Assembly: GCF_018977255.1 (NCBI RefSeq)
Contig: NW_024704742.1
Coordinates: 77,688,001-77,752,000 of the forward strand
Length of the DNA stretch: 64,000 nucleotides
Direction: 5' to 3'
Origin: Callorhinchus milii
Lineage: Eukaryota
Below the pieces are notes generated by a model, which was not told the origin of the DNA, made no database searches, and saw only the letters and a list, made by a program, of their open reading frames with translations. This document shows, in pieces, positions 7,683 to 60,179 of this stretch. Numbering within the stretch: position 1 is the first letter of the stretch; every line of letters begins with the position of its first letter. A program made the translations under genes and the position numbers.

Positions 7683-7998
7683 AATAATAATAATAATCCT
7701 TGCATTTGATATAGCGCTTTTCACGTCGGGAGGATGTCCCAAAGCGCTTCACAGAACACATTGTAAAGTGAATTGACTGTATATTTGTGGGCGAACGCGG
7801 CAGCCAATTGTGCATAGCAATGTCCCACAAACAGTCGTAGATTGAAAATTACCAATTTATTATTGTTTTTTGTTTTGGAGGGATTATTATTAGGCGTGTG
7901 GAGTAAGGAAACTTGCCCAAGGTTTCGCCCTGCCTGGAATTGAACTCAGGTCTCTCACCTGCAAAGCGAGTGCTCTAACCACTGAGCTACAGGACTCC
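7683..7998 (-). mobile_element. Young tRNA(Ala-like)-derived SINE, short subfamily (SINE2-1_CM-like)
   Basis: Near-identical to the copies at 8383, 9571, 26166, 28880 and 32053. Has A/B boxes and a (TTA)n tail. Confidence 0.92.
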
Positions 7999-8382: not shown

Positions 8383-8707
8383 AATAATAATAACAATAAT
8401 AATAATCCTTGCATTTGATATAGCGCTTTTCACGTCGGGAGGATGTCCCAAAGCGCTTCACAGAACACACTGGAAAGTGAATTGACTGTATATTTGTGGG
8501 CGAACGCGGCAGCCAATTGCGCACAGCAATGTCCCACAAACAGTCGTAGATTGAAAATGACCAATTTATTACTGTTTATGGTTTTGGAGGGATTGTTATT
8601 AGGCGTGTGGAGTAAGGAAACTTGCCCAAGGTTTCGCCCTGCCTGGAATTGAACTCAGGTCTCTCGCTTGCAAAGCGAGTGCTCTAACCATTGAGCTACA
8701 GGAGTCC
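8383..8707 (-). mobile_element. Young tRNA-derived SINE, short subfamily
   Basis: Same ~320-bp consensus. Preceded by a (GATTAT)n microsatellite at 8345-8373. Confidence 0.92.
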
Positions 8708-9570: not shown

Positions 9571-9895
9571 GTGGAATCCTGTAGCTCAGTGGTTAGAGCT
9601 CTCGCTTTGCAAGCGAGAGACCTGAGTTCAATTCCAGGCAGTGCGAAACCTTGGCCAAGTTTCCTTACTCCACACGCCTAATAATAATCCCTCCAAAACC
9701 AAAACCAATAATAAATTGGTCATTTTCAATCTACGACTGTTTGTGGGACACTGCTGTGCGCAATTGGCTGCCGCATTCGCCCACAAATATAGTCAATTCA
9801 CTTTACAGTGTGTGTTCTGTGAAGCTCTTTGGGACGTCCTCCCTATGTGAAAAGCGCTAAATCAAATGCAAGGATTATTATTATTATTATTATTT
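9571..9895 (+). mobile_element. Young tRNA-derived SINE, short subfamily
   Basis: GTAGCTCAGTGGTTAGAGCTCTCGCTTTGCAAGCGAGAGACCTGAGTTCAATTCC head with a (TTA)n tail. Confidence 0.92.
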
Positions 9896-14124: not shown

Positions 14125-14450
14125 TTCTGTAACTCGGTGGTTAGAGCACTCACGTCACAAGCAAGAGAGCTAGGTTCAATTCCCGGCAGGGCGAAACCTT
14201 GGGCAAGTTTCCTTACTCCACACGCCTAATAATAATCCCTCAAGAAAAAAAACAATACTCATTTGGTCACTCAATTCACGACTGTTTGTGGGACACTGCC
14301 GTACGCAATTGGCTGCCTCGTTTTACCCACAAAATGTACAGTGAATTCACTTTACAGTATATTCTGTGATACGCTTTGAGACATCTTGAAGATGTGAAAG
14401 CGCTATATCAAATGCAAGGGTTATTATTATTATTATTGTTATTGTTATTA
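14125..14450 (+). mobile_element. tRNA-derived SINE, intermediate form (central domain absent, old-type tail)
   Basis: CACACGCCT joined directly to AATAATAATCCC, but with the TATATTCTGTG..GAGACATCTTGAAGA tail of the older copies. Confidence 0.85.
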
Positions 14451-21556: not shown

Positions 21557-21933
21557 TAATAATAATAATAATAATACTTGCATTTGATACAGCATTTTCT
21601 CACTTCTTCTAGACGTCTCAAAGTACTTCACAGAATATACTGTAAAGTGAGTTGACTGTATACTTTGTGGGCGAAACGTAGCAACCAATTGCGCACAGCA
21701 GTGTCCCATAAACAGTCATGGATTGAGTGACCAAATTATTATTGTTTTTTTGAAGGATTATTATCCCCGGAAAAGTGATCCGCCAATCCACTAACAACCG
21801 GGTTCCTACTTACTGCTAGGTAAACAGAAGCGTGTGGAGTAAGGAAACATGCCCAACATTTCGCCCTGCCGGGAATTGAACCCAGGTCTCTTGCTTGCGA
21901 GGCGAGTGCTCTAATCACTGAGCTACAGGACTC
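21557..21933 (-). mobile_element. tRNA-derived SINE, long subfamily, full length
   Basis: Complete head (GAGTCCTGTAGCTCAGTG..GGGTTCAATTCCC), central segment and tail. Confidence 0.9.
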
Positions 21934-26165: not shown

Positions 26166-26478
26166 AATAATAATCCTTGCATTTGATATAGCACTTTTCA
26201 CGTCGGGAGGACGTCCCAAAGTGCTTCACAGAACACACTGCAAAGTGAATTGACTGTATATTTGTGGGCGAACGCGGCAGCCAATTGCGCACAGCAATGT
26301 CCCACAAACAGTCGTAGATTGAAAATGACCAATTTATTATTGTTTTTGGTTTGGAGGGATTATTATTAGGCGTGTGGAGTAAGGAAACTTGACCAAGGTT
26401 TCGCCCTCTGCCTGGAATTGAACTCAGGTCTCTCGCTTACAAAGCGAGTGCTCTAACCACTGAGCTACAGGACTCCAC
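26166..26478 (-). mobile_element. Young tRNA-derived SINE, short subfamily
   Basis: Near-identical to the other young copies. Confidence 0.92.
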
Positions 26479-28879: not shown

Positions 28880-29217
28880 GTGGAGTCCTGTAGCTCAGTG
28901 GTTAGAGCACTCGCTTTGCAAGTGAGAGACCTGAGTTCAATTCCAGGCAGAGCGAAACCTTGGGCAAGTTTCCTTACTCCACACGCCTAATAATAATCCC
29001 TCAAAACCAAAACCAATAATAAAAATTGATCATTTTCAATCTACGACTGTTTGTGGGACATTGCTGTGCGCAATTGGCTGCCGTGTTCGCCCACAAATAT
29101 ACAGTCAATTCACTTTACAGTGTGTTCTGTGAAGCGCTTTGGGATGTCCTCCCGACGTGAAAAGCGCTATATCAAATGCCAGGATTATTATTATTATTAT
29201 TATTATGATTATTATTA
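28880..29217 (+). mobile_element. Young tRNA-derived SINE, short subfamily
   Basis: Full head-to-(TTA)n copy. Confidence 0.92.
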
Positions 29218-29269: not shown

Positions 29270-29900
29270 TGAGGAGACCAACAACAACAACAACAAGATT
29301 ACATTTGTATAGTGCCTTTCACGTCCCAAGGCACTGGATAGTGTATAGCATTTCAGACCTGAGCTGGGGTCAGGGGGAAGAAAGGGAGGGGAGGGGAATG
29401 GGGGTGACCGATGGCATGGTCGAAGAGGAGGGTCTTGAGGCAGGACTTGAAGGAGGCTAAGGAGAGGGCAAGGTAGAGTGATTGGGGGATGGAGTTCCAG
29501 AGGTTGGGGCAGAGAGGCTGAAGGCTCTCCCGCCAATGGGGGGCGGGTGGGTCGGGGGACATGGAGCAGGCCAGAGCTGGCTGAGCGGAGGGAGTGAGCA
29601 GGTTGGTAGGGGGTTAGGAGGTCGCAGAGGTAGGGTGGGGCGAGGGTATGGAGAGCTTTGTAGGTGAGGAACAGGAAGCAGAGCATTGAAAATATCCACC
29701 CTGGAGGTGACAGAAGCTAGGATAAAAATGAAATTAGCAACAGTGAGACCGAGGAGAGGATTCAAATGAATAATGATCTGAAAGTTGAAGGCCTTCTTGG
29801 CAATGAAACGAATGTGGGTTTTGAAACTTGGGATCAAGCAGAACGCCAAGTTTACACATCAACTGAGGCAGGGATGTGTCTGAAATCCGAGCCGGGGCCA
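29270..29900 (-). mobile_element. L2 LINE 3' fragment
   Basis: LTYKALHTLAPPYLCDLL.PYQPAHSLRS and PPIGGRAFSLSAP..WNS.PQS..SFKSCLKTLLF, with a (TTG)n tail. Confidence 0.9.
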
Positions 29901-31569: not shown

Positions 31570-32698
31570 ATATGTCACGCAATACCTGCCCTTTCACCTC
31601 CTCCAATTCCACTGTCCAGGGCCCCAAACACAGTTTTCAAGTGAGACAGTGATTTACGTGCATTACCACCAATGTAATTTACTTCATTCGCTGCTCACAA
31701 TGTGGTCTCCTCTACATTGGGGAGACGAAACGCAGAATCTTCGTTCTGTCCGCAAGCACAACCCTGAGCTTCCGGTTTCTTGGCATTTCAACTCTCCCTC
31801 CCACTCGCACTCTGACCTCTCCTTCCACAGTCTCCTACGCTGTTCCAATGAGCCACAGCACAAGCTCGAGGAACAGCACCTCATTTATCTGCCAGGGACC
31901 TTACAGCCCTCAATATTGATTTCAATAATTTCAGACTATAACAGCTCACCTTCCCCCTCCCCTCTTCTGTGACCATTACCACATCATCTGGGTAACAGAC
32001 ACACCTTTTCTCTCTCTGGTCTGTCTATTTTGTTGCAATGATTCCTCACTTTAATAATAATAATAATCCTTGCATTTGATATAGCGCTTTTCACGTCGGG
32101 AGGACGTCCCAAAGCGCTTCACAGAACACACTGTAAAGTGAATTGACTGTATATTTGTGGGCAAACGCAGCAGCCAATTGCGCACAGCAATGTCCCACAA
32201 ACAGTCGTAGATTGAAAGTGACCAATTTATTATTGTTTTTGGTTTTGGAGGGATTATTATTAGGCTCTGTGTGGAGTAAGGAAACTTGCCCAAGGTTTCG
32301 CCCTGTGCCTGGAATTGAACTCAGGTCTCTCACTTGCAAAGCAAGGGCTTTAACCACTCAGCTACAGGACTCCACTTTGTTCTGCAGTATTAACATCTCT
32401 ATTCCCCTGTTTTGTTGCAATCCCCCTTTGTTTTGCATCATTAGCACCTCCTTTAACCCATCATTCCCTGTCCTCTACCCCATTTTCTCCTTTATCTTCA
32501 TGCCCTGCCTCCCCCCAGTCTGTTAGCTCTTAAAAACCTCTCCCTCCCAACATGCCCCAGTTCTGGCGAAGGGTCGTGGACTCAAAAGGTTGACTCTCTT
32601 TCCTTTTTTCTTAGATGCTGCCTGACCTGCTGAGTGTTCCCAGCGACTTCTGTTATTGTTTCAGAGTTCCAGCATCAGCAGTATTTTGCGTTTGTTTA
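31570..32698 (+). mobile_element. Penelope-like element: GIY-YIG endonuclease remnant plus 3' terminal repeat, split by a SINE
   Basis: IRCSQCGLLYIGETK (TGCTCACAATGTGGTCTCCTCTACATTGGGGAGACGAAA) and PVSWHFNSPSHS..KLEEQHLIY..GTLQP. The 3' part GATGCTGCCTGACCTGCTGAG..CCAGCATC carries a degenerate hammerhead at 32559-32596. Confidence 0.85.
32053..32374 (-). mobile_element. Young tRNA-derived SINE inserted in the Penelope element
   Basis: Young consensus, with Penelope sequence on both sides. Confidence 0.92.
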
Positions 32699-36248: not shown

Positions 36249-36635
36249 GTGGGTTCAAGCCCCGCTTTGGGATTTGGAATCACATACTATAAGTTGAAAC
36301 TCCAATGCAGTGATGGGGAGCATTGCATTGTTGGAGATGCCGTTCATCAGTTGCGATGCTGAACCCAGGTCTTGTCTATCTGTTCAGCTGGATGTTAAAG
36401 ATCCCATGGCACTGTTCGAAAAGAGAGGGTGTTTCTCGCAGTGTCCTGGGCAACAATTCCCCAGTAAAATAGGTCACTTACTCCATGACTGTTTGTGGGA
36501 CACTGCTATGTGCAGTTGGCCGCTACGTTTTGCCCACAAAATACACAATCAATCCACTTTACAGTGTATCCTGTGAAGCGCTTTGAGACATCTTGATGAC
36601 GTGATGAGGCACTAGATCAAATGCACGGATTATAC
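36200..36635 (+). mobile_element. Full-length tRNA-headed Deu-domain SINE
   Basis: TAGCTCAATGGTAGCACTCTTGCCTCTGAGTCAGAAGGTTGTGGGTTCAAGCCCC head, Deu core and shared L2-type tail. Confidence 0.88.
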
Positions 36636-47432: not shown

Positions 47433-49544
47433 TTAATGCTTGTCAATGGATACCTATCTACAATATTATACTCATTTGTTACCGCTTCCACAATCAGGGG
47501 TTGTTGCCTTCCCTGTTCCACATGAAATTCCATCTGTTATTGCTTAGCCAGTATATTGCATGTATCCACATTTGAGTGCTACGAGACTTATAATAAATTG
47601 CCTAGCCAACTATTTGTTTTCTGAACAATTTTTATAATGTTTCTAAAAATACCTTCATCAGTCATCAGCAATGCAAATAGCAGGAAATCCAGAACAGACA
47701 CCATAGGAACATCACCAGTCACTGCTCCCCAGAGCCAGGCATGTGCATTTCATCACCTTTAGGTCTCCATTGGCAAGCCAACTTTGATGAATTAATTAAT
47801 TCCATGCACCTTTTTCCTTTTTTCGAATGTTCACATGCACAACTTTATGCATTGTCTTCCAAAAAGTAAATTATATCCATTGAAAGTAAAATATAACTGG
47901 CTGCCAAGTGTATAAAGCATGTCTGCTTTACTTACATAATATGTTTGAATGTTTTTAATGTATGATATTGTACACAAATTAGAAAAAAAATCAATTAAAG
48001 AAAAGTTTGAAGTCTTGAATAAAACCATACCAGCATTTTTTATGATCTCTGTACTTTTAAAGAAATTGATGAGTTCTTGTAAAACATTCTGAAACATTTC
48101 CCCGACAACGGACATTAGACCAACTGTTCTATATTTCTACTTCACGTCTCGTTTCTCCTGAATATTAGGATTATGATAAAAAGAAGAATCCTTGCACTTG
48201 ATATAGCTGGGGCAAATGGAGCTCTATGTTAACTACAATAAAGTACAATTTGCATTTCATATAGCACCTTTCACATCAGGAGGCAGTCTCAAAGTGTTTT
48301 ATACTGCTGACTGGCCACTGGAGCTGGAGAGGTGAAGAAATAACTGAAATATTAACCACAGCCTCTTCTATTTCTTTACTTGTCTTATTGTGGGAAATAG
48401 GTGCCATCACATCTGCTCCTAATGTATTTTGAATATTTAATGCTTTTTGTTTCTTGGTACCGCGCACTTTACTGATATCTGCGTATTTTAGAGATCCCAA
48501 AGCCAGGTTGGCTGGATATGGAAATTGTCCAGAGATAACTATAAACATTGGTGTGAAAGAATCATTTAGTACATATTTCATTTTCTCCACTCCATATTTC
48601 ACTTCATTTATCTTTCAAATGCATCATTTTGAAGAGGTTCTCACACTGCCCTCACATTATTTCTGCACCATCCAAAAAATTTTATTTAGTCATTCATTTC
48701 ATTGCCATTTTGGGGGACATTGCAAATGCAGATTAACTGCAGTGTTTTCCAACATAAACCACTAAACTTCAAAGTAATGTAATGGGTGAAACATTATGAC
48801 ATATTTTGATATGATAAGGCCTTATATCAAACGGAAGCATTATCCAAACTTTCAATTTCTTAATTATTTTTGAGTCCCATAATGGTTAGTCACTATTGTT
48901 TTATTCATTTTTATGTTGTTTCCAAAAAAAAATGAAAAGAAAAAGAATCTCTCCTGAATCCTAGGCTTCATCAGGTTGTTTTTTTTCATCAGAGTATCCA
49001 AACCGAACTGAGAGTATCCCAAACTGTAAACTGTACTGTACATGGATATTCCTGAGATGTTTGTCATCCCGAGCCATGAGGACCTTGACTGATACACCAG
49101 AGTCTGGGCTGAGAATCCCGTACAGTACTGGGGGAGCCTCCCTCGCATTATCAGAGGTGCCATCCTTTGGATGAGATGATAAACCGAGATCCCATCTGAT
49201 TTTTTCTTCAGGTGGATGTTAAAGAAAGAGAAGGACATTTCTCTCAGCGTCTTGACCAACCATCCACAAGATAAATTGATCATTTGCTTTCTGGCTGTTT
49301 GTGGGGTTTACTTTGACGCAATTTAATGTGGTAAAACATTATAACAATGCAGTTTATTCCTTTTAGGTACAAGTTATAGTTTTGCAGAATCAATATTTTG
49401 CCTCTGTGTTGCATTAAAATGTCAGATTTTCAACATTTGTACAATTGGAGCCGTAGGGGATTAAAACAATAAATAAATCCCCTCAGGGATCAGACATTGA
49501 GGCGAGTACAACAACAACAACAACAACACAATGACATTTGTATA

Positions 49545-49745
49545 ATAATAATAATAATAATCCTTGCATTTGATATAGCGCTTTTCACGTCGGGAGGACG
49601 TCCCAAAGCGCTTCACAGAACACACTGTAAAGTGAATTGACTGTATATTTGTGGGCGAACGCGGCAGCCAATTGCGCACAGCAATGCCCCACAAACAGTC
49701 GTGGATTGAAAATGACCAATTCATTATTGTTTTGGGTTTTGGAGA
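49545..49745 (-). mobile_element. Young SINE, 5'-truncated
   Basis: Matches the 3' two-thirds of the young consensus. Confidence 0.9.
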
Positions 49746-49791
49746 TCATAAGCTCAGTCGAAGAGGAGGGTCTTGAGACGGGTTTCATAAC

Positions 49792-49940
49792 AACAATAAT
49801 CATTGCATTCGATAGAGCGCCTCATCACGTCTTCGAGACGCCTCGAAGCGCTTCGCAGAGTGAACTGTAAAGTGAATTGACTGCGCGTTTCGTGGGCGAA
49901 ACGCGGCGGCCGATTGCGCGCGGCAGCGCCACACAGACAG
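49792..49940 (-). mobile_element. Old SINE tail with strong GC/CpG gain at the CpG-island edge
   Basis: Aligns without gaps to the SINE tail consensus but carries about 20 A/T->G/C differences. Confidence 0.85.
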
Positions 49941-50265
49941 GGGGGGATTTTGTTTCCGTGGGTAACGGTCCTTACGTTTGAATGGGGTTTGAATGTCACT
50001 AACGGTCAGTGTTTAAGTGTAACGGTCCGGGATGGAATGTAACTGTTTTACGGCAAAGTCCGGAGCCGCATTCCCGCGCACGCGCACTGCGCAGTGTGGC
50101 GGCCGGGGGCGTTGTGCGCAGGCGCGGTGCGGTGCTCAGGCCGGGCTGTGAGGAGGTGCGGGCGCCGCAGTGACCGACAAATGGCGGTGACGAGGGCACA
50201 GGACAGCGCTCCAGGTACCGCGGGGGGAGGGGAGCGGCGCGAAGCCGGGACCAGCAGGGTAGCCC
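49800..50265 (+). promoter_or_regulatory. MPDZ: CpG-island promoter of MPDZ with NRF1-like and YY1-like motifs
   Basis: The only CpG-dense block in the window. GCGCACGCGCA (50076-50086) and TGCGCAGGCGCG (50115-50126) are NRF1-like; CAAATGGCGG (50178-50187) is YY1-like. Lies 6.8 kb upstream of the ATG exon. Confidence 0.8.
50090..50214 (+). other. MPDZ: Probable 5' UTR first exon of MPDZ (start approximate)
   Basis: Lies in the CpG island and ends at the donor CAG|GTACCG. Exon 2 has an acceptor upstream of its ATG, so an upstream exon is required. Confidence 0.6.
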
Positions 50266-51810
50266 TCACCCCAGCCCACACCCTCCCCCCCCCACACCAG
50301 CCCCCTCTCCCCCCCACCCTCCCACCCCCACACCCACCCCCCCCTCTCCCCCCCACACCCTCCCCCCCCCCCCCCCCCTCTCCCCCCACACCCTCCCCCC
50401 CACACCAGCCCCATCTCCCCCCCCACCCCCCCCTCTCCCCCCACACCCACACCCCCTCCCCCCCCCACCCCCACCCCCACACCCACCCCCTCTCCCCCCC
50501 CCCCCACACCCCCCTCTCCCCCCACACACCCAGCTCTCCCCCCCACCCCACCCCTTCCCCCCACACACCCCCACTCCCCCCCCACCCACCCCTCCCCCCC
50601 ACACCCACCCCCCCTCCCCCCCACACCCCCCCCCCCCCCCCCCCCCCCCCTCTCCCCCACACCACACCCCTCTCCCCCCCCACCCCCCCACCACCCACCC
50701 CCCCCCTCCCCCCCACACCACCCCCCTCCCCCCCCACACCCCCCCCTCTCCCCCCACACACCCCCTCTCCCCCCCACCCACCCCCCCTCCCCCCCCCCAC
50801 ACCCAGCCCCCTCTCCCCCCACACACCCCACCCCCCCCACCAGGCCCTCTCCCCCCCACACCCAGCCCCCCTCTCCCCCCCCACCCACCCCCCTCCCCCC
50901 CCACACCCAGGCCCCCTCTCCCCCCCACACCCCCCCCTCCCCCCCACACCCACCCCCTCTCCCCCCACACCACCCCCATCTCCCCCCACACCCAGCCCCC
51001 TCTCCCCCCCACACCAGCCCCCTCCCCCCCACACCCAGGCCCCTCTCCCCCCACATCCCACCCCCCTCTCCCCCCACACCCCCCCCCTCCCCCCCACACC
51101 CAGCCCCTCTCCCCCCACACCACCCCCCTCTCCCCCCCCACACCCAGCCCCCCTCTCCCCCCCCACACCCACCCCCCTCTCCCCCCCACCCAGGCCCCCT
51201 CTCCCCCCCACACCAGGCCCCCCTCTCCCCCCCCACACCCCCCTCCCCCCCCCACACCCAGGCCCATCTCCCCCCACATCATCCCCAGCCCCCCTCTCCC
51301 CCCCCCACACCACCATCTCCCCCCCATACCCCTCCCCCCCCACACCCCCCCCTCTCCCCACACCAGCCCCATCTCCCCCCCATACCAGCCCCCCTCCCCC
51401 CCCCCCACACCCCCCCCCTCTCCCCCCCATACCAGCCCCCTCTCCCCCCCCACACCCCGGCCCCCTCTCCCCCCCCCCCCCCAGGCCCATCTCCCCCCCA
51501 TCATCCCCAGCCCCCCTCTCCCCCCCCCACCAGCCCCATCTCCCCCCCCCCACACCAGCCCCATCTCCCCCCCACAAGCAGCTCCCCTCTCCCCCCACCC
51601 AGCCCCCTCTCCCCCCACACTCCAGCCCTCTCTCCCCCACACATCCAGCCCCCTCTCTCCCACACCCAGCCCCCTCCCCACACCCACCCCCCCCCACACC
51701 CACCCCCCCACACTCAACCCCCCTTCTCATCCCCACACTCAGCCCCCCTCTCACTCCCACACCCAGTCGCCCCTCTCACCCTACACACCCAGCCCATACC
51801 CCCAAACCCA
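50262..51810. repeat. C-rich degenerate minisatellite (~20-bp unit CCCCACACCCAGCCCCCTCTC)
   Basis: About 1.5 kb of C runs separated by ACA/TCT/AG, with very few G on the + strand. Confidence 0.95.
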
Positions 51811-52110: not shown

Positions 52111-53480
52111 TCAGGTAGACAGGACCTCAGTTTAACATCTCATCAAAAGGAAGGCACCTCCAACATTGCAGCTCTTACCCTGCACTGTATTGGCTTGTCA
52201 TCTTAGAGTGAGTTCAGCTGGGTGCCGACACATGTGGAAACCTATCACCATGTTTAAGAGTATCCATGCATCCCACCTACACATGGAAATTCCAGAGATA
52301 AATTGTTGGGATCTTGCATCCACAATGTTCTGACTCAGACTAGTGTAGTACCAACTGAGTCAGGCAGACATCATCCCTCGTAACATCAACATCTTTGGCA
52401 GGGTTAACACATTTGAAATGTTTAATTTATTGTTAACACTTGTGCTTTTAATTTCAAATTACCAATTTATGTGGATATTAATCCTGTTTGATTTGGATAC
52501 TCTTTAGCATCCAACATCCGTCTGACCCCCAAAAATAACTCCAGGACGATAGTTTTGTAAACTTTCTCATGTATCTTTTTAGTAATATTCTGCAATTTAT
52601 TAAGGCAGTTTTAATTGACTATGTTTGCTTTTTAACCAGTGATAAATATAATGGATAGTATTAACTGTCAGGATGCACTTTGTACTTAATGTATGGTGAT
52701 GTTCACATTGAAGGATTGATAACTGATATAATTACTGCAGGCTTGATAATGTAGCAACCAACAGTTGGTTGCTGGTACTTATCTTCTGTATTGTGTTATG
52801 TATTTACATTTCGAAGGAATCTTCAAAAGTTAATTCTGTAGAAAAACTAGTCCTGAATATCCTCCATACCTGGTAACTACTCCCTCTTCTACATTAACGA
52901 AGATGCTATTCAGGGCTTTGTCAGACTCATTAATCTGTTAATCAGTATTAACTTTAAGGATTCTGCTTCAGTAGCTTTAATCTAAATGAAATGCATTTGT
53001 TTGAACAACAGGGTGAGTTTGCCATAAATGTTGGATATTTAATATTATTGTTAAAAATTGAATGGCTAGTTTACATCAGTCAGTTTATATACCTTAGTAA
53101 AATAGGTTTCTACATCTTTTTGGAAGCTCATTTGTATTTATAAAGTCCACCTAATATTTTTGTTACACTTGTTTAGATATTCAGATTATGGNTTTTTTCT
53201 GTTGTAAGTGTGGACTATATTCCTGGTTTGTTTTAGTTATAGAACCTCTCCATGAATCGGGCTGAGTTATCAAACCTATTCAGATTAGTTCAGTTTTGTC
53301 AGCAGCATTGGGTAGAACACATTTTATACAAGGCTATCAACTGCTATATTGTGCCCACTTTAATAAGATTGACAACTAGATAATTAATTGATTATTTAAT
53401 TTTCTGTCTCCTTAAATTTTTGAATATGTGGACCTTATAAAAATAGCTTTTTATCATCTGGGTATTTGACATGCACAAAC

Positions 53481-56209: not shown

Positions 56210-56580
56210 AAGTCAATCGCAAGCAAGAGGACCTGGGTTCGATTCCCAGTTAAATAGCCATGAGGGCGAAATTTTTGGCAAGCTTGCTTTACTCCACACG
56301 CCTTTGTTTGCCTAGCAGTAAGTAGGAACCTGGTTGTTCTATTGGCAGATCACGTTTTTGGGAGTAATCCCTTCCCAACAAAAATAAATTTAAAAAATAG
56401 TAATAATTCAGTCACTCAATCCAGAACTGTTTGTGAGACATTACTGTACGCAGTTGACTGCCGCGTTTCTCCCACAAAATATTTAGTCAATCCACTTTAC
56501 AGTATATTCTGCGAAGCGCTTTGAGACATCTCAAAAGACATGATAAGGCACTATATCGAATGCAAGGATTATTATTATTA
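56210..56580 (+). mobile_element. tRNA-derived SINE, long subfamily
   Basis: GGGTTCGATTCCC, GCCTTTGTTTGCCTAGCAGTAAGTAGGAACC and shared tail. Confidence 0.85.
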
Positions 56581-57065
56581 ACTAAAATGAACCTACTTGT
56601 GTAAAGACCATATTTGTTGCTTTTTGGAAAGCTGAACCTTCATTTCAAAGAGCATTTGTATTTCATGGAACTGTATATACTTTGAAAAAAATATTTATGC
56701 TGCAGTGAGCCACAAATCTAGAGTTTTAAATGCCTTTGAAGTTTCTTAATAAAATGAAGTTGAGAAAGGATCCATTTTGTAGCAGAGAACATCTTCTGAC
56801 CTGTGTGTGTGGGAGAGGTAGGGTTTAGAATTAGTAGTGACATCTAATCCTCATGGCTACTTACTGACTAAGCGATTGACTGCTGACTATAAATGATGTA
56901 TGTTAAATGTGACTAAGTTGATGAGTCCAACCAGATGCAGACAAAACAAAATGTGAATTTTTTGATATATGTTTTCTGGATTTTATATAAAATTGTGTAT
57001 TTTTTTTCAGGACAAATTTAATAGGATTTTGGTTCCAGAGGATTGATTTCATTTCACCACTCGAG

Positions 57066-58921: not shown

Positions 58922-59088
58922 ATACTCCACGAGCCTTACAGGCTCTGGAGCGTTTGCAAGCCAAACTACGAGAGCGAGGGGATGTGGTGAATGAAGAGAA
59001 GCTCAATTTATTGAGATCTGTGCTACAGAGCCCACTCTTCAATCAGATCCTGAACCTGCAGAGCTCTGTTCAACAATTGAAAGATCAG
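58922..59088 (+). CDS. MPDZ: MPDZ (multiple PDZ domain protein, MUPP1) exon encoding the N-terminal L27 domain
   Basis: TTACAG| ... |GTAAGA, 167 nt, (D)TPRALQALERLQAKLRERGDVVNEEKLNLLRSVLQSPLFNQILNLQSSVQQLKDQ. Closely matches recalled human MPDZ (RALHAAERLQTKLRERGDVANEDKLSLLKSVLQSPLFSQILSLQTSVQQLKDQ) and fits it better than the paralogue PATJ. Confidence 0.95.
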
Positions 59089-60179
59089 GTAAGAGTCATG
59101 AGATGTCCTAAAATATCAAGGTAACAAAACCTCGCTAAGATGCATTTGGCCTTGTTTTATGAATTATGGAAGCATAAAGATTTTTCACATACAAATTGTT
59201 TCAATGTTTGTATTGTGTGATTTTCAATGGTCTAACGAGAGTGGTTATTTCAGTGACATCAAAAATATACTTGTTAATAAATAAACTTCCAAGTATTGTT
59301 CAGTGGTAAGGTTTATTTTTTTTTAATTCAATCAAAATTACTTATTGTATTCTGCTCAAGATAAATTGCTTTACTCTGGCCATCACCAAAATGATGTGTG
59401 CAGTTAGTTGGGATTCAAAAACTCTTATTTTGAAAAATCATGACTTTCCACCCCTCCTCTGTTTTTCACTGATTTTTTTCTCTTTTATCTCTTCTTAGCA
59501 ATTAACTTGTTAGTATGTTTCCATGGATTTTAGTGATTCTTGGTGATCATTATTCAATTACTGAAAAGATTCCGATAAGCAACCCCATTATCACTTTCTA
59601 TAGCTTTAGTATAGCTGAAAGGCCACGGTTTGTTTACATAAGGTCACCATATGTAAACCTTCCCTGTAGAACTGGAACTTCTCCAGGAGATAGCCATAGT
59701 TTTGTGACTTCAGCCTTGATTTGCACAGAATTCAAACTTCAAATTCCTCGCTTAATTTAAGCAGCATCAAACCAGTTCTCAAACCAATAATAAGTTTCAA
59801 TATTAACCAGTTGTAGTATAATCTTTCCTGGAAAAGGAGAGACAAAGTTTTTACGTGATTCCTTACAACAGTAAAGATGCATCAGTATGGGAAACATTTT
59901 GTCCTATGCACTGCACATAAACGTAACAGTAGAGAATACCTCTGCCTGGAATGATGGATACAAATTATATTGTAACGTGAAATATTTTAACCATTGTTGT
60001 CAAAACCTCTCACATTGATTTGTATTTACCAAGTTACTATATTTTGTAAAATGTATTTTATGAAACAATTTTTTTCTAATTTTTTTCCTATCTTTTACAA
60101 TCTTGTTTGGTAGCCCATATTAGGAATACTTGGAGTACAACAATCTGAAATATTTTAATAACATTGATATTTTGGATAG

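Follow-up and report, generated by a model that had tools for sequence, protein, structure and literature searches.

A GC- and CpG-shifted SINE tail at a promoter CpG island of Callorhinchus milii, a possible record left by GC-biased gene conversion

The mechanism of GC-biased gene conversion (gBGC) and the use of repeats as its reporters are both already established. In dog CpG islands the loss of CpG is suppressed and substitution of A/T by G/C (W>S) is raised, at 0.26 vs 0.06 (Berglund et al., PMC4350167). Promoter hotspots operate in most mammals with PRDM9 (Joseph et al., PMC11161765), conversion events in the zebra finch are enriched at islands with a GC bias of 59% (PMC12047795), and these two sources show that hotspots at hypomethylated islands do not require the loss of PRDM9. 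In addition, GC peaks at transcription start sites (TSSs) follow recombination history (PMC11323403; PMC13712754), the origin of new islands has been ascribed to transposons as well as to gBGC (PMC11170920), and Alu repeats served as reporters of gBGC in 2005 (work cited in PMC2346554).

For the elephant shark, the methylome has been described in species-level statements, with SINEs hypermethylated and expressed TSSs hypomethylated (PMC5437953). Its PRDM9 has been read as a KRAB-SET protein without SSXRD, with a zinc-finger array that is not rapidly evolving, and as the only case without detected expression in RNA-seq (Baker et al., PMC5519329), whereas elsewhere it is counted as complete (Cavassim et al., bioRxiv 2021.06.08.447603). 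Because these readings disagree, and because promoter hotspots coexist with PRDM9, the locus described here is not decisive on PRDM9; the proposal in a first-pass annotation of this DNA, that recombination is directed to CpG islands ‘rather than by PRDM9’, does not follow. Our literature search, with most of the subscription literature outside its scope, found no report of gBGC at CpG islands in cartilaginous fish, and these fish are unmentioned in the accessible part of PMC13186367. The repeats themselves are well described: CmiSINE (SINE2-1_CM, SINE2-1B_CM) and SacSINE1-CM of Callorhinchus milii have a common 3' tail, this tail is common to three SINE families and one LINE, and about 520,000 insertions carrying it have been counted (PMC5499810).

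The window analysed here is a stretch of 64,000 nucleotides of the Callorhinchus milii assembly, in which there are 28 SINE-tail copies of at least 80 aligned bases, namely the focal copy and 27 others. The features around the focal copy and its gene are as follows.

49100..49306, plus strand: older Deu-type SINE piece, a nearby control with no GC bias (W>S 14/100 and S>W 21/91 vs 10 other pieces)
49553..49744, minus strand: young 5'-truncated SINE copy (differs from 6 sister copies at 4 sites)
49745..49786, unstranded: small piece of a different repeat that separates the focal SINE tail from the young one (brief matches at 29419 and 30481; many contigs over the fragment)
49780..50262, unstranded: CpG island of 483 bp, GC 0.61, 55 CpGs, o/e 1.27
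49787..49940, minus strand: focal SINE 3' tail, 5'-truncated, GC- and CpG-enriched (alignment to the window copies)
49963..50027, plus strand: 8-base motif, present three times in the stretch that leads from the SINE to the core of the island (the window's only 3 occurrences)
50076..50125, plus strand: two GC motifs in the island core, at 50076 and 50116 (the window's only 2 matches)
50181..50214, plus strand: probable first coding exon with ATG, 34 bases, GT donor at 50215 (from the reading frame)
50281..51763, unstranded: C-rich minisatellite with a 22-bp unit, about 68 copies, where intron 1 begins
58922..59089, plus strand: second coding exon with an L27_2 domain of the MPDZ/PATJ family (PF09045, E=5.7e-32; AG/GT borders)

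The bin 49501-50000 is the sole 500-bp bin in the window with an o/e above 0.8, and the focal SINE gives 20 of the 55 CpGs of the island as well as its upstream edge. The focal tail sits 240 bp upstream of the probable first coding exon, whose junction with the L27 exon is in frame and has no stop. The gene belongs to the MPDZ/PATJ family, the second exon also matching PATJ L27 structures at E about 1e-13. The promoter had been assigned to MPDZ in the first-pass annotation: the family stands on the L27_2 domain, and a protein-atlas search with the L27 exon gave no usable match to split MPDZ from PATJ. MPDZ is therefore kept as a tentative name. The 8-base motif presumably has a MYB-like core, a stretch over its first copy is, by eye, what we take to be RFX X-box-like, and we assume the GC motifs at 50076 and 50116 to be NRF1-like. 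The minisatellite begins 65 bp into intron 1 and abuts the island.

The focal copy consists of the tail only, with no body or head match behind it, and is therefore filed as the shared tail only, since the family cannot be named without a body. Its minus-strand orientation was read from full-length copies in the same orientation with a minus-strand tRNA head (for example, the copy with its tail at 7684-7842 and its head at 7925-7996). In the window copies a tail of about 160 bp precedes either a short tRNA-headed body or a Deu-type body. All seven Rfam tRNA matches of the window (7925-7996, 8634-8705, 9579-9641, 21861-21932, 26408-26470, 28884-28955 and 32306-32366) are found where SINE copies end, on the side away from the tail, and represent SINE heads and no tRNA genes. 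The fragment at 49745-49786 is LINE-like by eye and resembles the end of L2 ORF2 on the minus strand. Further upstream, 49376-49498 is repeat-like at low copy, with matches in organism B contigs (14 differences, 2 gaps) and in a second organism A contig (8 differences).

The 27 other copies were sorted by eye from the alignment into 7 young, 14 ‘mid’ and 6 older copies. The 14 mid copies have the diagnostic letters and the gap pattern of the focal copy and align to it without gaps, and their majority, with CpG restored where both decay products were present, was taken as the reference over 149 columns. Relative to this reference the focal copy carries 22 W>S changes, 2 changes in the opposite direction (S>W) and a single neutral one (W>W), so that about a quarter of its A/T letters have become G/C. 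The W>S changes fall on 22 of 85 W sites, vs 64 of 1042 in the 14 mid copies (Fisher P=5.4e-8; about 1.5e-6 by hand calculation when corrected for the choice of 1 of 28 copies). This control is conservative, because differences of sub-lineage among the mid copies were counted as changes. Divided by position, 13/40 W sites are changed in the island-near half and 9/45 in the far half (raw counts). Compared to the ancestral state, the focal copy has gone from 9 to 20 CpGs and from a GC content of 0.43 to 0.56; its GC content (0.564) is the highest of the 28 copies (others, mean 0.398, sd 0.043), and its CpG count is at the top of the 28, the next being 9. The nine ancestral CpGs are all kept, vs 72/109 lost in the mid copies (P=6e-5), which together show 78 losses at 220 CpG bases, and 11 CpGs are newly gained. 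The first-pass annotation had counted about 20 W>S, 2 S>W and 1 neutral change in a gap-free alignment, with every ancestral CpG kept, about 11 new ones and ordinary CpG decay in old copies of the window, and our recount agrees with it on each of these. Changes of the other kinds are few: non-CpG S>W stand at 2/46 in the focal copy vs 54/532 in the mid copies, and neutral changes at 1/149 vs 32/1794. Thus, the focal copy is not simply older, and greater age was rejected as an account of its changes.

The changes were recounted under two further rules. When letters found in at least two mid copies were taken as inherited, the W>S changes fell to 19, while the 2 S>W and the single W>W stayed; when only letters found in none of the 27 other copies were admitted, 9 W>S, 2 S>W and 0 neutral changes remained, and the mid copies have 0-3 such W>S changes each. 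At the nine ancestral CpG sites both decay products (TG and CA) are found among the other copies. At the sites of the eight CpG gains that take a single step, just one of the two products, either TG or CA, is found among the other copies whatever their age group (young, mid or old), and the gains are therefore derived. The same single-product pattern rules out a reversed polarity, in which the focal copy would be the fossil of a CpG-rich ancestor. Four of the gained CpGs are each present in a single mid copy as well (the copy at 56419 has those of 49810 and 49855, that at 36483 has 49908, and that at 14276 has 49922), and up to four of the gains may thus be inherited or lie at mutable sites; the clustering of gains common to other copies has P=0.06. 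Among the W>S letters that create no CpG, 3/8 are private to the focal copy.

Compared to the focal copy, neighbouring repeat pieces show no bias (W>S/S>W of 14/21 at 49100, 5/3 at 48170, 3/4 at 52117 and 4/5 at 56419). The GC bias is local: it is absent 0.5-0.7 kb and 1.5 kb upstream and 2 kb and 6 kb downstream, and is confined to the island edge. The first-pass annotation had claimed an acceleration of W>S at a CpG island, and this is upheld by a local bias at the sole island of the window, about 4-fold as in dog islands. The young SINE immediately upstream, which it had called near consensus, indeed has only the four differences listed, all of them W>S, with 0 S>W and 0/20 CpG bases lost. 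Taken alone this bias is not significant (P=0.15 for three W>S, P=0.10 for the lack of CpG loss), and the difference at 49703 is a common family variant. The change at 49687 in the young copy lies at the same homologous site as the focal change at 49929. Conversion between the two neighbours was considered for this likeness and rejected, since the flanking differences two bases to either side are not common to both. The copy at 56419-56581, 6 kb into intron 1, has two gained CpGs in common with the focal copy and otherwise ordinary decay, and may mark a small sub-lineage. Taken together, the focal SINE tail has undergone a real, strong and local shift of GC and CpG at a promoter island.

Independent sequence was available as contigs of four public runs, placed on the locus at 85% likeness, for which summed depth does not measure copy number. 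Two samples of organism A gave contigs over 49906-50262 and 49889-50262, with 2 differences each. These two independent-looking runs confirm the 3' half of the focal copy, one sample being possibly the source sample. At all 13 listed changed sites between 49815 and 49891 the family letter makes up 28-97% of the summed depth in run X3, a share to be read with the fact that placement at 85% favours contigs like the focal copy, and at site 49927 it makes up 21% of a small depth in the run contigs. Many paralogous contigs overlie the focal copy in these sets, and the letters read there are unphased. In runs X11 and X13 of the second organism the SINE family is present and 50026-50262 is not covered at 85%, which is no proof of absence. 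Metagenome scans gave 0 matches with a focal-specific pattern and likewise 0 with a family-wide control pattern, and the empty focal scan therefore carries no weight.

We further analysed how far protection from deamination could account for the CpG gains. At the 22 TG/CA sites, 0.7-1.6 gains are expected without faster fixation of W>S (0.7 from the TG/CA>CG rate of the mid copies corrected for re-decay, 1.6 from the rate of other W sites), and 8 are seen (P=3e-7 to 1e-4). Hypomethylation is needed, yet it is insufficient for the acceleration of W>S. A fit with free age and a constant conversion strength gave B=2.85 (CI 1.5-4.85; P=1.5e-6 vs the clock-only model). With sites that create no CpG alone, B is 1.78 (9/61 changed, LRT P=0.014), and W>S vs S>W at non-CpG sites in the lenient count has P=0.007; in a strict, hand-picked non-CpG set with 4/57 changed the signal vanishes (P=0.32). 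The first-pass annotation had held that protection alone does not explain the pattern, and the deficit of expected gains bears it out, whereas its own argument, from about eight changes that create no CpG, is weaker than it had put it. Likewise the excess of non-CpG W>S on which it had staked its reading is found in the lenient count and is gone in the strict one, as far as the focal copy alone can tell. The context of the changes also matters: CpG-creating sites are changed more often (10/24) than others (10/61; P=0.02), and the same number of W>S changes scattered at random would give about 6 new CpGs where 11 are present (P=0.005-0.012 across four settings). Human gBGC has no greater strength at CpG sites, and mis-polarisation inflates such signals (PMC4510005). 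Given CpG gains above random and moderate non-CpG support, a contribution beyond plain gBGC is indicated: CpGs may have been selected for, mutation or repair may depend on sequence context, or some of the letters may be inherited.

Four other explanations were weighed against conversion. Selection may have recruited the tail as an upstream promoter shoulder, favouring changes that create CpGs or motifs for an unmethylated island and for binding sites. The surplus of new CpGs over context-blind W>S, the preference for CpG-creating sites and the share of the island's CpGs that the focal copy provides all suit this account, but the lenient count gives an excess of non-CpG W>S too, many single fixations of tiny effect would each be needed, and the GC peak at amniote TSSs tracks recombination history and not selection (PMC11323403, PMC13712754); we consider it unlikely. 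It is quite unlikely that the letters were inherited and kept from a rare GC- and CpG-rich source, be it a SINE lineage with few members or a partner L2 LINE through its tail. Such a source is suggested by the four gained CpGs and several other letters that occur singly in other copies, by the sharing of the tail among three SINE families and a LINE (PMC5499810), and by the changes at 49823 and 49845, which pair in a predicted terminal stem-loop. However, that pairing has a random chance of 0.20 and three other changes break predicted pairs, none of the 27 copies has more than a few focal letters, the opposite decay product is missing at the gained sites, and 21/21 copies compared pairwise are poorer in G/C at the differing sites. 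A GC-rich subfamily with the same substitutions, named in the first-pass annotation as the finding to look for against its reading, was sought and rejected within the window, since 0/27 other copies there carry the diagnostic block of changes. Similarly, among the longest contig pieces, which were those listed, the only foreign one over the focal copy has 111 bp and 19 differences, and the summed depth, which is no copy number, drops over the focal copy from about 96,600 to 200 at the end where most letters have changed.

Hypomethylation together with mutation that is locally biased around the start of transcription, and no conversion bias, would fit the full retention of CpGs in the focal copy; mutation peaks near human TSSs exist (PMC13712754), and an excess of TG/CA>CG is found in human SNPs (PMC3025853; further related literature, PMC4417305), a kind of signal that mis-polarisation inflates (PMC4510005). 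This explanation is nevertheless very unlikely, given that it leaves the gains seen far above those expected without faster W>S fixation, that there is no rise in S>W or in neutral changes, and that the human TSS peak spans all mutation types with a net loss of G/C (PMC13712754). An error of assembly or sequencing might be suspected at a site that borders a long low-complexity array, where no locus contig among those listed spans the 5' two-thirds of the copy; the contigs of the two organism A samples, one of them possibly the source, speak against it over the 3' half. Editing of the SINE RNA before insertion is contradicted by strand symmetry: a single strand carries 10 T>C and 11 A>G changes, a mixture that A-to-I editing cannot produce. 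An RNA-edited retrocopy of the ADAR or APOBEC type, with one change type on one strand, is therefore excluded, and for artefact and editing together we see hardly any likelihood.

The explanation that we favour, and hold to be somewhat probable, is that GC-biased gene conversion acted on a promoter hotspot in unmethylated DNA; the ‘long-lived’ hotspot of the first-pass annotation is a putative one. Three features of such hotspots are found at the focal copy: a promoter CpG island, suppressed CpG decay, and raised W>S without raised S>W or neutral changes. According to this explanation, a promoter that was unmethylated in the germline would have received a truncated SINE tail on its upstream edge. 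The sequence shows that CpG decay of the tail stopped there, the methylation state itself being one that we infer. Meiotic breaks on the open promoter, the presumed cause, would have been followed by heteroduplex mismatch repair favouring G/C; the pattern itself is seen, new A/T>G/C variants having been fixed about 4x faster than in the sister copies and G/C>A/T variants not. The SINE copy would thereby have joined the CpG island as a neutral by-product, and a CpG-favouring component (mutation or repair context, or mild selection) probably adds to this. Inactivity of PRDM9 is not needed. Points against gBGC are the loss of the non-CpG signal in the strict set (P=0.32), the two S>W changes that remain, the CpG gains above random, the four gains each found in one other copy and the non-significant bias of the young neighbour. 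The support, read from sequence, comes from one locus chosen after the fact, and a single locus proves neither the use of promoter hotspots nor a context-dependent bias.

The finding is chiefly of use because it points to a genome-wide test that would cost little, in a lineage for which we found no such data in the literature. If SINE tails at island edges generally shift, then one genome and a repeat alignment would answer whether promoter hotspots are used in a jawed-vertebrate outgroup, and from the surplus of CpGs at this locus one could learn whether conversion bias outside mammals ignores sequence context. A bolder reading, which we put forward as doubtful, is that recombination occurs at promoter islands despite a persisting KRAB-SET-ZF PRDM9, that conversion bias prefers CpG-creating alleles by repair of the TDG/MBD4 type, unlike in humans, that SINE tails are turned into island shoulders, and that several hundred thousand tails would form a historical hotspot map at base-pair scale, for a vertebrate class in which our searches turned up no recombination map.

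Compared to the known repeats, the tail of about 160 bp in tRNA-headed short copies and Deu-type copies of the window is arranged as in CmiSINE and SacSINE1-CM (PMC5499810), whereas the focal copy is bodiless and is likened to them by the arrangement of the tail and not by consensus letters. Compared to dog islands (PMC4350167), CpG loss is likewise suppressed and W>S is raised about 4-fold at a promoter island, at 0.26 vs 0.06 both there and here. The dog result is genome-wide, outgroup-polarised and linked both to a recombination map and to a PRDM9 that is dead; the present case is one copy, polarised by paralogues, with an extra preference for CpG, in a species whose PRDM9 status is disputed. 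The PRDM9-independent hotspots of mammals and birds (PMC11161765, PMC12047795) have in common with this locus a promoter-like CpG-rich site and a GC-biased substitution footprint, and differ from it in that recombination, methylation and cross-species stability were measured there, while the focal site is known from its sequence. A process known from dogs and birds would be seen here in a cartilaginous fish, most likely via biased repair, at recombination, in unmethylated DNA. In 2005, Webster et al. reportedly related Alu substitution to the large-scale crossover rate. As in that work on Alu, SINE copies are set here against their source sequence so that the direction of substitution can be read; the difference is one of scale, the present case being one copy whose distance to an island is measured in base pairs.
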